Of a DNA stretch of 64,000 nucleotides, positions 9,600 to 18,100 are shown piece after piece. The notes beneath the pieces are model-generated. The model did not search any database. It had not been told where the DNA came from and saw only the letters and a list, made by a program, of their open reading frames with translations. Both the position numbers and the translations under genes were made by a program. Source of the stretch: Clavelina lepadiformis (taxonomy: Eukaryota); contig NC_135248.1 of assembly GCF_947623445.1 (NCBI RefSeq), forward strand, positions 2,726,977 to 2,790,976, written 5' to 3'. Within the stretch, counting starts at the first letter, position 1. Each line of letters opens with the position of its first letter.

Positions 9600-10290
9600 G
9601 TACCAAGAAAGAGATAGATTAAGAGAAGAAAAAGAGAAAAGTAAATGACTGGTTGACCTGCAAGTGTACGAAAAAAATGAAGAACTTTGGTTTAAAAAGT
9701 AATAACTAGGATATTTCTTTGCCTTTTAAGTTGATTTCATGCAGAGATTGCTCACGAAAAAATTTTTCATTTGTTAAATATAACCGAATATAAAAGCGGA
9801 TACCTTTTTAGTTGGTTGATTCTATTTTAAACCAGTTTTGGTTTAGGTAAATGCCCCAACGTGGAATGTGACAAAAAATGCAAAGATGAACATAAGGAAA
9901 AGGATGACAATGGTTGCACGACTTGCAGGTGTACGAAACAGCTGGGAGATTTACTTTTAACAGGTACTGTAACAGTTGGGCCTTTTCTTTTCCTCTTAAT
10001 GTGTAATGCGCAAACAGTAGTCAGCATGTTAGCAATCAACGTTATGAAGTTAGCTGCCACTATTTCACCGAAAAAATCGTGCGTTCAAAGTTTTTCTTCA
10101 CAATTTCTAGTTAACCTAACTTAAATGTTTTAACATAGTAATCTAAATCTAACTTCTAATCTAAATCTAACTTTAAGTAAACCCTAAATAACCAAAATCA
10201 AGGTTTTGCAAATCAATTCTCCTAACCGCCTATCTTGAAATATACTTTTTGTGACCTACTTTTGGTGAAATACTCACTCTATGAAGTTTA
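9600..10290. repeat. Segmental duplication, copy 1 (~0.65 kb; contains antistasin-like exon 2 and flanking intron)
   Basis: About 90% identical to 17420-18100 across the exon and both flanks (e.g. gaagaactttggtttaaaaagtaataact..., agttggttgattctattttaaaccagttttggtttag, aatctaaatctaactttaagtaaac). Confidence 0.8.
9847..9963 (+). CDS. Astacin-mosaic gene exon 2: antistasin-like cysteine-rich domain (GKCPNVECDKKCKDEHKEKDDNGCTTCRCTKQLGDLLLT)
   Basis: tttag acceptor at 9845-9846 and CAG|GTACTG donor at 9964. Cys spacing C-x4-C-x3-C-x11-D-x-NGC-x2-C-x-C fits the antistasin-like domain signature. Phase 1 in and phase 1 out. Confidence 0.6.
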
Positions 10291-10705
10291 GTGAATCAAC
10301 TTAACATAGCCTAGTTAATTAGACTATTTTCCATATTGGTTTGAGATTTCCAAGCATGCAGTTGCGGTGATGAGGCATTACAATCTCTGTGTAATTCTAC
10401 TACACTGTTTGACAAAAAATAATATTTACAAGCTGTTAGGGTTGTAAGATAACATCACTAACAACAAATAACAATAAGTTAAAAGGTTTTAACCAAGTGC
10501 TATGACCCAAACCGGGCAAATTTGTGCATTTCAATCACTATCTTGGTTAGTACAATACTATCTGTGAAAAGGTAAATAATTTAAGCAACATTGTTATGTT
10601 ATTTTATATATTTTGAAATTATTTGATGCTAGTCAAATATTTTGGTAGATTATTTCACTTTTGAATTGTTTTCCAAAATAAAAGTTTTGTTTCTTGCTTA
10701 CTCAG

Positions 10706-10849
10706 AAGCACAAATTAATTGGATAGATGACCAGGAAAAGTCTGGGGATGGTAGCCCAAGAGCTGCATCATCTGTTGTTAAAAAATGGACGAGAGATGTC
10801 ACAGCTGATGGTTATTACAGAATCCCCTACAATTACTCAGATGACATAC
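10706..10849 (+). CDS. Astacin-mosaic gene exon 3: start of astacin catalytic domain (EAQINWIDDQEKSGDGSPRAASSVVKKWTRDVTADGYYRIPYNYSDDI)
   Basis: ctcag acceptor at 10704-10705 and C|GTAAGT donor at 10850. Translation carries the astacin N-terminal W...IPY motif. Overlaps the + ORF 10642..10902. Confidence 0.75.
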
Positions 10850-11038
10850 GTAAGTCAAAAGCTTTCAAAATTGTTAGGGAGTTAGCAGCTCTTTCATCTT
10901 GATTTAATTTTAAGGCACTGATTGTTTAGACCTAAAGTGTACTGTACATATTTCCGGTGAGTAAGTCGGGGCCTGGAGGTCACAGTATTTTGATTTTTTA
11001 TCGCGCACTTGGTTGATTCATTTTCATGCTAATCCCAG

Positions 11039-11205
11039 ATTCTCGGCCTCAACACCGAGCTAACATTATCAAAGCTATTTCAATTCTCAACGCGCTGACT
11101 TGCTTAGAGTTCCAGCCAGCAACCCAAGTAGACATAAATCAGATGTATTTCATTGTTGATGAAGGATGTTGGTCTTACGTTGGGAGGCAAGGTGGTAAAC
11201 AGAAG
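11039..11205 (+). CDS. Astacin-mosaic gene exon 4: astacin domain (HSRPQHRANIIKAISILNALTCLEFQPATQVDINQMYFIVDEGCWSYVGRQGGKQK)
   Basis: cccag acceptor at 11037-11038 and AAG|GTGAAA donor at 11206. TCLEF and GCWSYVGRQGG match the astacin consensus TC(I/V)xF...GCxSxVGRxGGxQ. Confidence 0.8.
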
Positions 11206-11410
11206 GTGAAAAGGTTTCACAAGTTTACATTATTTACATTATCTTTCTTCACTGTTCTGTTATATTTTGAAACCTTTCGGGTATTTGGGTATTATAATGT
11301 ATCTTTGCTTCATTGCTTGTGTTCCATTATGAAACTCAAATCATAAACGCTCTCTTCAGTGACTTGAATTGATCCATCGAACACTAAATTAGTTTACTTA
11401 CTTTTGAAAG

Positions 11411-11546
11411 ATTTCTATTGACGACGGATGTCAGAGCGTAGGAACCATCCTGCACGAGATCATGCATGCATTGGGATTCTGGCACGAACAATCACGAAGC
11501 GATCGGAATGATTTTGTCAAAGTGTTAAAACGGAACATTGAATCTG
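11411..11546 (+). CDS. Astacin-mosaic gene exon 5: zinc-binding active site (ISIDDGCQSVGTILHEIMHALGFWHEQSRSDRNDFVKVLKRNIESG)
   Basis: Contains the extended astacin zinc-binding motif HExxHxxGFxHEQxRxDRD verbatim. tgaaag acceptor at 11409-11410 and G|GTGGGT donor at 11547. Confidence 0.85.
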
Positions 11547-15875: not shown

Positions 15876-16056
15876 ATGGTACAATTGCTCTTCCGGTTGC
15901 CCCAGTTACCCATACCCCACCCTCTATACCCGCATCGACTGGTAGTCGTGGTTGTGTGGTGTTGGGTGAACCACAACTTTACAGGGGTACAGTTTCAAAG
16001 ACGTTCACCAGCTGTCTTTATTGGGACTCACAGACACCCCATGCTCATGATTATAC
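15876..16056 (+). CDS. Astacin-mosaic gene exon 15: linker plus kringle 3, first half (DGTIALPVAPVTHTPPSIPASTGSRGCVVLGEPQLYRGTVSKTFTSCLYWDSQTPHAHDY)
   Basis: caacag acceptor at 15874-15875 and AC|GTGAGT donor at 16057. The kringle pattern is in a different frame from the annotated ORF 15837..16067; the kringle frame was chosen by homology and phase continuity. Confidence 0.7.
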
Positions 16057-16252
16057 GTGAGTTTTGACACAAAATTCTTTCTCAAATTGCTCAAGAATGT
16101 ACAAAGCTTTGAAATGTGATTTTATAAACCAGAATAGCGTTTAAAGATTAATGTTATCGAGTATTTTTGAGTAGTGACTACAGCCCTACCATATTTTTAT
16201 TACTTTGTATTCGCACGTAATCGAGCATGGGATAAGTTGTGTCAATTCGCAG

Positions 16253-16395
16253 CACTCTGGAAAAATTTGTCTCTGCCGGACTGACCGAAAATTATTGCCG
16301 GGCGCCAGAAGCAGATGATTCATGGCCTTGGTGCTTAGCTTTGCTCTCCGGAGTCGCAACAAAATTATCTTGCGATGTTGCCGCCTGTGAGCCAG
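16253..16395 (+). CDS. Astacin-mosaic gene exon 16: kringle 3, second half (TLEKFVSAGLTENYCRAPEADDSWPWCLALLSGVATKLSCDVAACEP)
   Basis: ttcgcag acceptor at 16251-16252 and G|GTAACG donor at 16396. NYCR.P....PWC....SC....C kringle tail. Confidence 0.7.
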
Positions 16396-16479
16396 GTAAC
16401 GTCGAAAACTAACATATTGTGTCAGTGTTGTTCAAAGTACTTTGGATTTTGTGCCTCAGTTATGCCATGAAGCTGCATT

Positions 16480-17300
16480 TGCTGGTAATTGCACGAGTAC
16501 CGTCTTAAAATAAAAGTCGTTCACAGCAACCTTTCGAGTATTTCTTTTGGCTGTATAGAGGCCAGCCGTTGTACAGCCTGGCAGAACGGAGCGAGAAAAT
16601 TCCGTTACAATACTAACCGCCCTCTTCGTCATAACAGGAGGCCAAATTTGCGATACAGCCAAAAGGCTTTTATTTTAAAGCACATGTACGCTGAAGTGGT
16701 GGGTTCGATTCCCGCCCGGTTCGATCGTGACGAAAAAAGTGTTATTTGGTTTAGTCTGATGATGGCAGGTAACGTTAAATTTGGTTAAAACAATTCATCA
16801 ACAAATATCTGCTGCTAGATTAGGCTACAATGACCTTTTTGTAACTGTCCATATATGTGATTCAGAAGTAGATATTCGCAATTCGTTGAATTAATTAGCG
16901 CTTCCTTGCGCCTGAAGCAAGAAATGTGTGACCACGTGAAGTTATTGTATATAAGACGGTAAACGAATAGAACTTAAATATACAAAAAAATATCAAAAAG
17001 GAAGAACTTCGTGTAAATTTTTGCCAGTTTCTAGTTTTTCCATGCAAAATTCATACAAATCCTAAATCATTCCAACATGATCTCTTGTTAGATTTTTTGC
17101 TATTGTACATTGCTTTTGTTTGCCAAAATATGTTGCAAATTATCCACTCTGCCTTCAGTCAAGCTAATGGCGCAACACGCAGAAGCGCATGGACTCTATG
17201 GCAGAGGTACTGGGTTCGATTCCAACCAAGTTCGCCCTTGTTTCGTGGAAGGTTGACGGAGATAAGTCATCATAGCACTCTCTACGCTAATCGCTAATCG
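16480..17300. repeat. Cluster of tRNA-derived SINE-like fragments in the astacin gene intron
   Basis: tRNA T-arm-like boxes: GTGGTGGGTTCGATTCCCGCCCGG at ~16695 and GGTACTGGGTTCGATTCCAACC at ~17205. The annotated ORFs here (16489..16788, 17085..17297) have no protein-like features. Confidence 0.4.
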
Positions 17301-17419
17301 CTATTCAACCAATTGCACTCAATTGCATCTTCTCTTTTCAGCTTCACTCGTTCCGTTCCAGTCATCGCGGAAAAAACAGGTTCGAAAATCTGATAATAAT
17401 TAATTTGTCCTTTATCAGA

Positions 17420-18100
17420 GGTTTTCGATTTTCGATTTTCGATTCGATTTTCCAAGTAAGAGATGGCAATGGCTGCTTGACCTGCAAGTGTTCGAAAAAA
17501 ATGAAGAACTTTGGTTCAAAAAGTAATAACTAAAATTTTTCTTTGCCTTTTAAGTTGATTTCATGCAGAGATTGCTAACGAAAAAATTTTTCATTTGTTA
17601 AATAATACCGAATATAAAAGTGGATGTAATTTTTTAGTTGGTTGATTCTATTTTAAACCAGTTTTGGTTTAGGTAAATGCCCCAACGTGGAATGCGACAA
17701 AAAATGCAAAGATGAACATAAGGAGGATGTCAATGGTTGCACGACTTGCAGGTGTACGAAACAGCTGGGAGATTTACTTTTAACAGGTACTTTAACAGTT
17801 GGGCCTTTCTTTTCCTCTTAATGTGTAATGTGCAAACAGTAGTCAGCATTTTAGCAATCAACGTTATGAAGTTAGCTGCCACTATTTCACCGAAAAAATC
17901 GTGAGTTCAAAGTTTTTCTTCACAGTTTCTAGTTAACCTAACTTAAATGTTTTAACATAGTAATCTAAATCTAACTTTAAGTAAACCTTAAATAACCAAA
18001 ATCAAGGTTTTGCAAATCAATTCTCCTAACCGCCCATCTTGAAATTATATGGGCTGCGTAACCTACTTTTGGTGAAATACTCATATGACAAATTTTAATT
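17420..18100. repeat. Segmental duplication, copy 2 (paralogous to 9600-10290)
   Basis: Direct sequence comparison with copy 1. Includes an upstream Cys-rich stub reading DGNGCLTCKCSKKMK. Confidence 0.8.
17673..17786 (+). CDS. Candidate exon 17 of the astacin-mosaic gene: second antistasin-like domain (GKCPNVECDKKCKDEHKEDVNGCTTCRCTKQLGDLLLT), the duplicated copy of exon 2
   Basis: Near-identical to 9847-9963 apart from a 3-nt in-frame deletion, with the same tttag acceptor and CAG|GTACTT donor. Its entry phase (1) matches the exit phase of exon 16. It could equally be a duplicated pseudo-exon. Confidence 0.35.

Follow-up and report, generated by a model that had tools for sequence, protein, structure and literature searches.

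A putative break-repair duplicate of an antistasin-like exon, delimited by transposon ends, downstream of a predicted astacin protease gene in Clavelina lepadiformis

The window analyzed here, a 64,000-nucleotide stretch of the Clavelina lepadiformis genome (NC_135248.1), contains a 16-exon gene that RefSeq names "apolipoprotein(a)-like". The isoform X1 protein (P0121, XP_076825734.1) maps exactly to the window as 16 spliced GT-AG exons. Its predicted product is a secreted astacin metalloprotease of modular architecture, comprising, in order, a signal peptide, antistasin, astacin, kringle, TSP1, TSP1, kringle, TSP1, and kringle. Pfam identifies astacin (196.9 bits), three kringles, three TSP1 domains, and antistasin (22–25 bits). 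In the spliced mapping, every module boundary of the gene is in phase 1. The features considered below, including two copies (c1 and c2) of a duplicated segment and two transposons (TE1 and TE2), are as follows.

9161–9221, plus strand: exon 1, encoding the signal peptide MHLYFYIVVFLITVLLYAEA, with a phase-1 donor (spliced mapping of isoform X1)
9300–9600, no strand assigned: right part of TE1, a non-autonomous TIR transposon within antistasin exon 1 (comparison with L001, the locus in a second individual's assembly)
9603–10284, plus strand: c1, the parental segment, between exon 1 and exon 3 of the gene
9603–9698, plus strand: stub in c1 (…WLTCKCTKKMKNFGLK), decayed 3′ remnant of antistasin exon 1, followed by a donor GT at 9699–9700
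9847–9963, plus strand: exon 2 (117 nt, phase 1-1), which encodes the functional antistasin-like module (spliced mapping; Pfam)
10052–10279, no strand assigned: TE2 in c1, MITE-like, ~228 bp, in intron 2 (9-bp target-site duplication and other copies)
16253–16412, plus strand: last exon, encoding the second half of kringle 3 (spliced mapping)
16509–16514, plus strand: AATAAA, the sole canonical poly(A) hexamer from the stop codon to 18400
17422–17451, no strand assigned: (TTTTCGA)n microsatellite directly adjoining c2 on its left side (TRF), without a counterpart at c1
17452–18088, plus strand: c2, the derived segment, 1040 nt 3′ of the stop codon
17452–17522, plus strand: stub in c2 (…RDGNGCLTCKCSKKMKNFGSK), the 3′ part of antistasin exon 1 in fossil form, better preserved than in c1, followed by a donor GT at 17523–17524
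17673–17786, plus strand: antistasin exon copy in c2, 114 nt, phase 1-1, open frame (Pfam PF02822)
17874–18083, no strand assigned: TE2 copy in c2, lacking the last 3 nt of TE2

The presence of two same-orientation copies ~7.8 kb apart, reported in an initial annotation of this DNA, is borne out by both a direct-repeat search of the window, which returns five collinear blocks at offsets of 7804–7826 nt, and blastn, which detects two copies of the block in the window and no more. The limits of c1 and c2 were refined with outgroup and target-site duplication (TSD) information. The identity of ~90% given initially agrees with the blastn value (91.2% over 638 columns, 9644–10276 versus 17468–18083, 901 bits, E = 0), a figure that is due mainly to an 18-nt tandem repeat private to c1 of the window; the substitution divergence between the copies is only 4.9% (30/611).

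The antistasin exons of both copies are flanked by an AG acceptor and a GT donor in phase 1-1. Relative to c1, the c2 exon carries one in-frame 3-nt deletion, one D>V replacement, and one synonymous change, converting HKEKDDNGC to HKEDVNGC; the frame, deletion, splice signals, and phase had all been described correctly. All six Cys residues are retained in c2, and the 47 nucleotides upstream of its acceptor are identical to those of c1. Similar to members of the antistasin family of serine-protease inhibitors (PF02822), such as leech antistasin and the Hydra antistasin-like proteins, the exon peptides display the six-Cys pattern CPxxxCxxxC…GCxxCxC, and both exceed the Pfam gathering cut-off of 21.2 bits over the full 26-position model, although only just (22.1 bits for c1 and 25.1 bits for c2, the one-codon deletion raising the score). 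In place of tandem inhibitor repeats, a single putative inhibitor domain is found here, at the N terminus of a predicted astacin/kringle/TSP1 protease. The c2 exon is better conserved than its surroundings, but not significantly so (2/114 substitutions, 1.8%, versus 28/497, 5.6%, outside the exon; Fisher p = 0.095).

The "Cys-rich stub" (DGNGCLTCKCSKKMK, 17462–17522) that had been noted just upstream of copy 2 is indeed present, but it is not specific to c2, since it also precedes the exon in c1, within the duplicated block. At the DNA level, the stub matches the intact 117-nt antistasin-1 exon of a paralog. In a gapless comparison with this exon, the c2 stub is 27% identical at positions 1–45 (12/45) and 72% identical at positions 46–117 (52/72), and in columns 45–71 the matches number 18/26 for c2 and 11/26 for c1. 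The c2 stub also aligns with positions 15–26 of the Pfam Antistasin model (17.4 bits). The c1 stub is more decayed, with a coding trace of WLTCKCTKKMK (9650–9698) and a ~25-nt purine-rich tandem expansion adjoining TE1 (TRF period-11 array, 9608–9638); its ATG at 9677 is the start of RefSeq isoform X2, and P0001 begins MKNFGLKS. The N terminus of the paralog P0125/P0002 comprises a signal peptide, Anti1, Anti2, and astacin. The ancestor of the host gene had two N-terminal antistasin exons, as this paralog still does, and the stub is the 3′ remnant of the first of them, which was destroyed by TE1. The two such exons of the paralog show the block to be a fragment of the 5′ end of the gene. It begins with what is left of the dead antistasin exon 1 and continues through an intron, the live antistasin exon, and intron sequence to TE2.

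The earlier reading missed the pair of transposons at the limits of the block. Full-length TE1 is visualized in L001 (617–623 bp, 5966/5969–6585/6588), where it interrupts the Anti1 exon and has 28-nt TIRs (96% complementary) and subterminal GAATAGAAnCCGCC repeats. In the window allele, a ~575-bp deletion has removed the left half of TE1 together with the 5′ half of the exon. The TA at 9601–9602 is probably the target duplication of TE1, as judged from one copy of the element, and reconstruction of a TA-flanked TE1 restores the exon in frame with the paralog exon. TE2 in c1 is bounded by the 9-bp target duplication TATGAAGTT at 10043–10051 and 10280–10288. Further TE2 copies are observed in the window at 1591–1791 (minus strand), 36492–36643 (minus strand), and 55649–55771, the first of which bears its own 9-bp TSD, AAAAATAAA. 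In c2, the left TSD of TE2 (17865–17873) is intact, and the right TSD is cut to TATGA (18084–18088), after which unrelated sequence follows. Because the TSD is complete only at c1, c1 is the parent and c2 the derived copy. The source segment thus assigned starts within about 2 nt of the right end of TE1 and ends 5 nt past the right end of TE2. At the left breakpoint, homology of c2 to the paralog exon sets in sharply at exon position 46, immediately after the TA of TE1, and no homology is detected upstream of the junction (local alignment score of 15 versus a shuffle mean of 16.6 ± 2.4). The flanks of c2 are unique sequence, common to L001. TE1 and TE2 belong to unrelated families, and therefore one transposase cannot explain both ends of the block. 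Movement of c2 as a transposon was rejected: c2 has neither enclosing TIRs nor a TSD of its own and therefore did not move in this way.

Small segmental duplications and templated insertions arise when double-strand breaks are repaired or when replication switches templates (SDSA, FoSTeS/MMBIR-type). The history that we consider probable is that c2 is a transposon-end-associated break-repair duplicate, now a noncoding relic, a mechanism that we infer from the breakpoint positions alone. The TA-flanked TE1 destroyed the first antistasin exon, and TE2 landed in intron 2. Once both elements were in place, a 0.64–0.68-kb segment was duplicated in direct orientation, the copy lying 1.04 kb 3′ of the stop codon. 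This was probably a single copy-and-paste event in the repair of a broken chromosome or of a replication fork that had stalled downstream, with DNA synthesis at that site templated on the c1 region and the end points set by breaks or by hairpin-forming inverted repeats at both transposon termini. If the template had been cleaved at the end of TE1, for instance, synthesis may have run off it or stalled there. The new strand would have been joined by end-joining, with (TTTTCGA)n remaining as filler on the left side. The duplication is ordinary in kind, and its mechanism is of moderate interest.

Tandem duplication of the gene and subsequent deletions, a history in two steps, would yield an identical present-day structure but is considered unlikely. 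Here, c2 would be the remnant of a larger tandem duplication whose unit, at least ~7.8 kb long, spanned most of the gene and from which TE1 of the second copy was excised, taking everything to its left, and a deletion beginning beside TE2 removed the astacin, kringle, and TSP1 exons. DNA transposons induce rearrangements such as excision and adjacent deletions, and these would likewise place the boundaries at the TE1 and TE2 ends. The copies are spaced ~7.85 kb apart, nearly the distance that separates the Anti1 exon from sequence immediately beyond the 3′ end of the gene, and another partial 5′ duplicate of the gene family is found at the paralog locus. However, at least three events are needed rather than one, and no other duplicated exon or intron has left a trace downstream or upstream of c2; in tblastn searches, neither a second copy of exon 1 nor any signal-peptide, astacin, kringle, or TSP1 exon 3′ of c2 was found anywhere in the window. 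The left junction of c2 shows no visible TA or footprint, and no repeat suited to unequal crossing-over was found at the junction. Of the two readings offered initially, the one that takes c2 for the 5′ end of a partial tandem duplicate of the gene comes closer, in that the block is a fragment of the 5′ end of the gene, but there is no second gene.

With respect to coding status, a relic phase-1 donor (CAG/GTAACG) after 16395 is read through to GNVEN and the stop codon at 16410–16412. In the paralog P0126, a real intron occupies this position and two further kringle exons come after it, which makes the GT after 16395 a true donor position of ancestral origin, in the right phase. The AATAAA lies 97 nt 3′ of the stop codon, c2 lies about 0.94 kb beyond it, and no further AATAAA follows c2 on the plus strand up to 18400. 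In two RNA-seq-guided annotations, the protein ends …CEPGNVEN* by read-through of the 16395 donor, and c2 is ignored (PMC10950049). These annotations and the placement of the signals suggest that c2 is outside the mRNA and is a neutrally drifting relic, probably still open, splice-competent, and in phase 1-1 because it is young and short.

The other reading offered initially was an exon duplication in progress, for which no positive support was found and which we regard as improbable. In some tissue or stage, a transcript would have to pass 16509 and splice 16395 to 17673–17786, adding a C-terminal antistasin module (…CEP-GKCPNVEC…LLLT-GTLTVGPFFSS*). The splice sites, open frame, six Cys residues, and Pfam score of the c2 exon, its lower substitution frequency, and the phase-1 ancestral donor are all compatible with such exon shuffling. 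The match to the exit phase of the last kringle exon does exist, but it is generic, the family default, since phase 1 holds at all module boundaries of the gene, and the excess conservation is not significant. The sole AATAAA, moreover, falls between the stop codon and c2; no protein with the 16395–c2 junction or the c2-specific HKEDVNGC is found in a collection of 5.8 billion sequences; C-terminal antistasin is absent from all paralogs; and the host gene of the other individual has lost its start codon and has a broken exon-6 acceptor.

Use of c2 in a separate small transcript is decidedly improbable. A funannotate gene model of 64 aa on the minus strand of L001 (14250–14993) overlaps c2, but Pfam gives no hit for its product, which matches nothing more than short ORFs. 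Alternatively, an X2-like mini-ORF could start at the stub ATG (17501) and be spliced to the c2 exon, as the ATG and donor used by isoform X2 in c1 are conserved in c2; this ORF, however, would lack a signal peptide, c2 lacks the sequence upstream of the c1 stub, and no poly(A) hexamer lies downstream on the plus strand.

Both copies are also observed in GCA_961645235.1, assembled independently from PacBio HiFi data of another individual (PMC10950049), at matching positions, with matching c1/c2 fixed differences (28–30), the same unique flanks, and collinear sequence of ~98–99.7% identity. The c1 sequences of the two individuals cluster together, as do the c2 sequences, with 4.9% divergence between copies versus 0.3–0.7% between alleles; the duplication predates the split of the two sequenced haplotypes. 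Because an independent assembly has both copies with fixed differences, the mis-assembly considered initially, in which a collapsed or mis-joined haplotig makes a false second copy, is very unlikely; no support for it was found, and it is effectively refuted.

As a sub-kilobase segment in direct orientation, a few kilobases from an intact donor, c2 is reminiscent of small intrachromosomal segmental (insertional) duplications and templated insertions. Similar to SDSA/FoSTeS/MMBIR-type events, it is free of surrounding TSDs and TIRs, has nonhomologous filler at one junction, and has breakpoints that adjoin hairpin-prone inverted repeats, a likeness in which the mechanism is read from the end points only. 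In contrast to generic template-switch events, both source breakpoints lie 0–5 nt from transposon termini, which is more precise than usual. As in exon shuffling under Patthy's phase-compatibility rule, the copied exon is symmetric (phase 1-1) and encodes one disulfide-rich module, carried with parts of both flanking introns, and the host is a mosaic protease; unlike in exon shuffling, c2 lies beyond the stop codon and poly(A) signal rather than in an intron, and its splicing-in is unsupported. The duplication of a gene fragment beside DNA transposons, along with a MITE that has a 9-bp TSD and travels with the fragment, also recalls Pack-MULE transduplication, Helitron capture, and Ac/Ds-type alternative transposition, from which it differs in that TE1 is excluded from the copy and TE1 and TE2 are unrelated families. 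In addition, a polymorphic autonomous hAT element is located 4 kb downstream, a sign of local transposon activity.

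An antistasin exon in the 5′ part of an astacin- and kringle-containing gene is present a second time 3′ of that gene, within a duplicated block. The two copies, which the initial annotation had described as ~90% identical and in the same orientation, are recovered by a repeat search of the window as five collinear direct-repeat blocks with offsets of 7804–7826 nt. As borne out by blastn, 9644-10276 aligns with 17468-18083 at 91.2% identity, gaps included, over 638 columns (901 bits, E=0), and the exon-bearing part of the block occurs in just two copies in the 64 kb. The features of the two copies are as follows.

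9603-10284, copy 1, in the 5′ part of the host gene
9847-9963, antistasin exon of copy 1, 117 nt, AG/GT, phase 1-1; exon 2 of the gene, directly 3′ of the signal-peptide exon
10139-10173, 18-nt tandem duplication (TAATCTAAATCTAACTTC x2) in copy 1, within the MITE-like element TE2; private to the window allele
17452-18088, copy 2, 3′ of the host gene
17673-17786, antistasin exon of copy 2, 114 nt, AG/GT, phase 1-1
L001 6629-7244 (copy 1) and 14424-15039 (copy 2), the same copies in a second individual, with the fixed differences seen in the window

In a four-way alignment, the two copies differ by 30 substitutions at 611 aligned positions (4.9%) and are thus 95.1% identical at the substitution level. 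Most of the 27 gap columns are due to the 18-nt tandem repeat, which is missing from copy 1 of the second individual and from both copy 2 sequences, such that the 91% figure is mainly a consequence of a duplication private to copy 1 of the window. Of the two available C. lepadiformis assemblies, one is from an Atlantic individual and the other from a Mediterranean individual, and RNA-seq was used in both annotations (PMC10950049). The locus in the second individual (L001, assembly GCA_961645235.1) is collinear with 3977-30842 of the window and contains both copies. Allelic divergence is 0.7% for copy 1 and 0.3% for copy 2, the copy 1 sequences of both individuals cluster together, as do the copy 2 sequences, and the 28–30 differences between copies are all common to both individuals. 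This clustering by position rules out mis-assembly, a possibility that had been left open, as well as recent gene conversion between the copies. The shared differences also place the duplication well before the coalescence of the two haplotypes. A protein search for orthologous loci elsewhere returned no close homologs outside C. lepadiformis, and the duplication can therefore be dated only relative to allelic divergence.

The conceptual protein assembled from the exons of the host gene matches the RefSeq protein 'apolipoprotein(a)-like' of the tunicate Clavelina lepadiformis, and isoform X1 (P0121, XP_076825734.1, 744 aa) maps exactly to 16 GT-AG exons in 9161-16412. Pfam recognizes an astacin domain (PF01400, 196.9 bits), three kringles, and three TSP1 domains in this protein. 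As in astacin (M12A) metalloproteases, the astacin domain carries the HExxHxxGFxHExxRxDRD zinc motif (HEIMHALGFWHEQSRSDRND) and the SxMHY Met-turn (SVMHY). A literature search found no paper naming antistasin, astacin, and kringle together in one architecture. The paralog P0125/P0002 is composed, in order, of a signal peptide, antistasin 1 (…RDDNGCWTCKCKKPAKEFDSK), antistasin 2, and astacin. At its locus in the second individual (L002, contig CAUIVY010000005.1, GCA_961645235.1), 6963-8043 and 9822-10899 form an inverted 1.1-kb duplicate of the 5′ end of P0002/P0125 (92.9%). This duplicate extends over the first exons, with the signal peptide and antistasin exon 1; the annotation treats it as a gene in its own right (P0124, 129 aa), and a diverged antistasin-2-like exon adjoins it. 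Partial 5′ duplication thus recurs in this small family.

Both copies of the host antistasin exon fit the antistasin domain, with six conserved cysteines and PF02822 scores (22.1 bits for copy 1 and 25.1 bits for copy 2, model positions 1-26 of 26) above the gathering cut-off of 21.2 bits; an inhibitory role is only predicted from this match. The copy 2 exon differs from that of copy 1 by one in-frame 3-nt deletion, one D>V replacement, and one synonymous change, and keeps six of six cysteines, so that the deletion, open frame, AG/GT signals, and 1-1 phase reported earlier for this exon all hold.

The Cys-rich stub noted just upstream of copy 2 (RDGNGCLTCKCSKKMKNFGSK) is present and represents the 3′ part of an antistasin-1 exon; it matches PF02822 only at model positions 15-26, with 17.4 bits, under the cut-off. 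It is not confined to copy 2: copy 1 is also preceded by a stub, more decayed (WLTCKCTKKMKNFGLK), and 9655-9738 matches, at the DNA level, the intact 117-nt antistasin-1 exon of the paralog and the start of its intron. The stub accordingly belongs to the duplicated block, which is therefore a 5′ gene fragment made up of the exon-1 remnant and antistasin exon 2, separated by one intron, together with ~320 nt of the following intron. Over columns 45-71, the paralog is matched better by the copy 2 stub (18/26) than by the copy 1 stub (11/26), which has gained a purine-rich tandem expansion, indicating that the stub was already non-coding and that copy 2 holds the better fossil. An ATG within the dead antistasin-1 remnant (9677-9698; MKNFGLK) starts isoform X2 (P0001), which is spliced from the old donor at 9699 and yields a product lacking a signal peptide. 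Both the ATG and the donor are conserved in copy 2 (17501-17524).

The agent that interrupted antistasin exon 1 is visualized in L001, which keeps the 5′ half of the exon (…YPERQCKAKCKGK). This half-exon is interrupted by TE1, a TIR transposon of 617-623 bp with 28-nt TIRs (96% complementary) and subterminal GAATAGAAnCCGCC repeats. The window allele holds only the right part of TE1 (9300-9600), a 575-bp deletion having taken the rest along with the 5′ half of the exon. The two alleles are thus structurally polymorphic, with the 575 bp that contain the antistasin-1 5′ half and the TE1 left half found in L001 at 5705-6279, opposite 9300-9302. If TE1 is read as TA-flanked, a gapless in-frame exon is restored (DKYPERQCKAKCKGKYQERDR, compared with GKCPKRQCKLRCKSKNRERDD in the paralog); the alternative of a 3-bp CAA target site duplication (TSD) is disfavored, as it brings a stop codon and a frame shift. 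TE1 is thus a candidate Tc1/mariner-like non-autonomous element, with TA flanking favored over CAA from this single copy.

The left end of the copied segment coincides with the right end of this element. Compared with the paralog exon, copy 2 is at random level over exon positions 1-45 (12/45) and 72% identical over positions 46-117 (52/72), and position 46 is the base right after the TA where TE1 sits in copy 1. The upstream flank of copy 2 has no homology to the sequence upstream of the TE1 site, namely intron 1 and the antistasin-1 5′ half (score 15, shuffles 16.6±2.4), and no TE1 sequence was found near copy 2. The identity switch together with these two negative results places the left end at the right terminus of TE1, within ~2 nt.

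The last part of the block is formed by TE2, a MITE-like element in intron 2, with four copies in total in the window.

10052-10279, TE2 in copy 1, ~228 nt
1591-1791 (-), TE2
36492-36643 (-), TE2
55649-55771, TE2

Consistent with a MITE, TE2 has dispersed copies, short TIRs (core TATTTCACCGAAAA), and a 9-bp TSD at two independent insertions: AAAAATAAA flanks the element at 1591-1791, and TATGAAGTT flanks that in copy 1 on both sides (10043-10051, 10280-10288). We take it to be Mutator-like, an assignment by TSD length only. In copy 2, the left TATGAAGTT is intact, and to the right of TE2 just TATGA is found, followed by unrelated sequence. The TSD, complete at copy 1 and truncated at copy 2, shows that TE2 inserted at the copy 1 site, making copy 1 the parent and copy 2 the derived copy, and the TATGA remnant shows that the source segment ended 5 nt past TE2. 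Both source breakpoints are thus at most 5 nt from independently defined transposon ends, for which we roughly estimate a chance of ~0.1%, given four such ends in ~1.5 kb.

Copy 2 starts 1040 nt past the stop codon of the host gene and ~940 nt past its sole AATAAA. The flanks (16413-17451 and 18089-19300) are single-copy and common to L001, and a (TTTTCGA)n array adjoins the left junction. In the simplest history that we infer, TE1 would first have killed antistasin exon 1, and TE2 would then have inserted in intron 2. Next, repair of a break or stalled fork, ~1 kb past the gene, would have used the copy 1 region as the template for synthesis, with the copied tract bounded by the TE2 end on one side and the TE1 end on the other, either because synthesis ran off a transposase-cut template or because it stalled at a TIR hairpin. 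The new strand would have been end-joined, leaving filler behind, after which the copies would have drifted independently and the 575-bp deletion would have struck the window allele.

The same end state would be reached if ~7.8 kb had been duplicated in tandem, TE1 had then excised with a deletion on one side, and a further deletion had occurred next to TE2, although this route needs at least three events that have left no trace. A tandem gene duplicate, as had been suggested by reading copy 2 as the 5′ end of a partial one, agrees with the 5′ gene fragment that the block is, but no further gene exons follow it: tblastn with P0121, P0125, P0127, and P0124 found no family exon in 18100-64000 and no second signal-peptide exon. 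A Pack-MULE or transduplicate is rejected, since copy 2 has neither TIRs around it nor a TSD or matching direct repeat at its junctions and therefore did not move as a transposon. A retrocopy is rejected as well, since copy 2 keeps the intron that separates the stub from the exon, along with 300 nt of the intron that follows, and has no A-tail. Motifs resembling a tRNA B box (GGTTCGATTCC) lie between the gene end and copy 2 at ~16695-16715 and ~17210-17225 and are suggestive of old tRNA-derived SINEs; a tRNA-derived SINE at the insertion site is rejected, as ARAGORN and Rfam are negative and the region has no second copy in the window.

Copy 2 is a segmental duplicate of an ordinary kind, small and young, and most likely a relic. 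Its splice signals and reading frame are intact, and it is skipped by both RNA-seq-guided annotations, RefSeq (X1/X2) and the funannotate models. The protein ends in …CEPGNVEN* in isoforms X1 and X2 as well as in P0122, an independent funannotate model, the GT after 16395 being read through up to a stop codon at 16410-16412. A new exon is expected within the transcription unit, in an intron, of its recipient; copy 2 lies past the stop and past the only AATAAA/ATTAAA in 16413-18400 (16509, 97 nt past the stop), with none after copy 2. A search of proteins for the hypothetical peptide joining the last kringle to copy 2 returned solely P0128, a funannotate 5′ model that uses copy 1, and none of the paralogs has a C-terminal antistasin. 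Selection on the copy 2 exon finds no support: its substitutions (2/114) are not significantly fewer than those of the non-exon part (28/497; p=0.095), a lower exon divergence is expected because the copy 1 exon is constrained, and the allelic diversity of copy 2 (0.3%) is like that of the unique flanks (0.25-0.5%).

In P0126, two further kringle exons come after the equivalent exon, whose end (…MCDP CAG|gt) is in phase 1; this identifies the GT after 16395 as a true ancestral donor. The fourth kringle, kept by P0126, has been lost from the host gene (16396-16412, compared with the exon 16/17 boundary of L003, 18043/18135), which now ends by readthrough of the ancestral phase-1 donor into GNVEN*. 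The 1-1 phase of the copy 2 exon is compatible with this relic donor, and the phase match noted earlier with the exit of the last kringle exon is correct, but it does not discriminate, as all module boundaries in the host gene and P0126 are in phase 1. It is improbable that copy 2 is used as an exon. Exon shuffling through DNA-transposon breaks, in which a phase 1-1 antistasin module cut at two transposon termini would be spliced on in some stage or tissue, is very improbable; if true, it would yield an astacin protease with inhibitor-like modules at both ends, by way of an unused ancestral phase-1 donor. The overall observation of the initial annotation is thus confirmed, and of its two readings the 5′ gene fragment stands, without the tandem gene, while the new exon finds no demonstration.

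The Mediterranean assembly has ATA instead of ATG at the X1 start codon (9161-9163) and AT instead of AG at the exon-6 acceptor (12661-12662), which is probably why the funannotate annotation has two models, P0128 and P0122, for this gene. In addition, its CDS has a 6-nt insertion in exon 15 and 42 nt differences leading to 24 amino-acid changes, including D194N next to the zinc-binding motif. These defects may reflect either relaxed constraint on the host gene or its segregation as a pseudogene, and they lower the weight of reading copy 2 as an innovation.

Exon shuffling draws its raw material from small segmental duplicates that carry exons, and how these arise can rarely be read, because junctions decay. 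As this copy is young, it still shows which copy is parent and which offspring, in which direction copying ran, and, to a few nucleotides, where both source breakpoints lie; with both at DNA-transposon termini, its origin is unusually legible. As one clean case, it illustrates the idea that modular exons are moved by breaks or stalls seeded at such termini. Its wider importance is limited, since it concerns one species and one relic that is probably non-functional. The annotation of the gene is also corrected: it once had two antistasin exons, one of which was killed by a transposon, and the remnant supplies the start codon of isoform X2.

Several other features lie nearby. A GC-rich 4.4-kb insertion 4 kb downstream (22335-26749), flanked by duplicated GGTCTCGT(T), contains an intact 854-aa ORF (22681-25242, -) with DUF4371 and a hAT dimerization domain. 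It is absent from the other individual's assembly (empty site, L001 ~19281-19290) and has the appearance of an autonomous hAT transposon that is polymorphic and was recently active, making local transposon activity evident. A 64-aa funannotate model on the minus strand over copy 2 (L001 14250-14993, ~17294-18037), with no Pfam match and only short ORFs, is probably spurious or a non-coding transcript model. Just 3′ of copy 2, 18190-18451 and 19259-19516 form a ~260-bp pair, 76% identical and 1.07 kb apart, that is also found in L001. Upstream of the gene, a stop-free, intronless ORF of 329 codons (5822-6808, +) has no Pfam match, is ~95% identical in L001, and, to judge from its numerous hydrophobic segments, resembles a multi-pass membrane protein.
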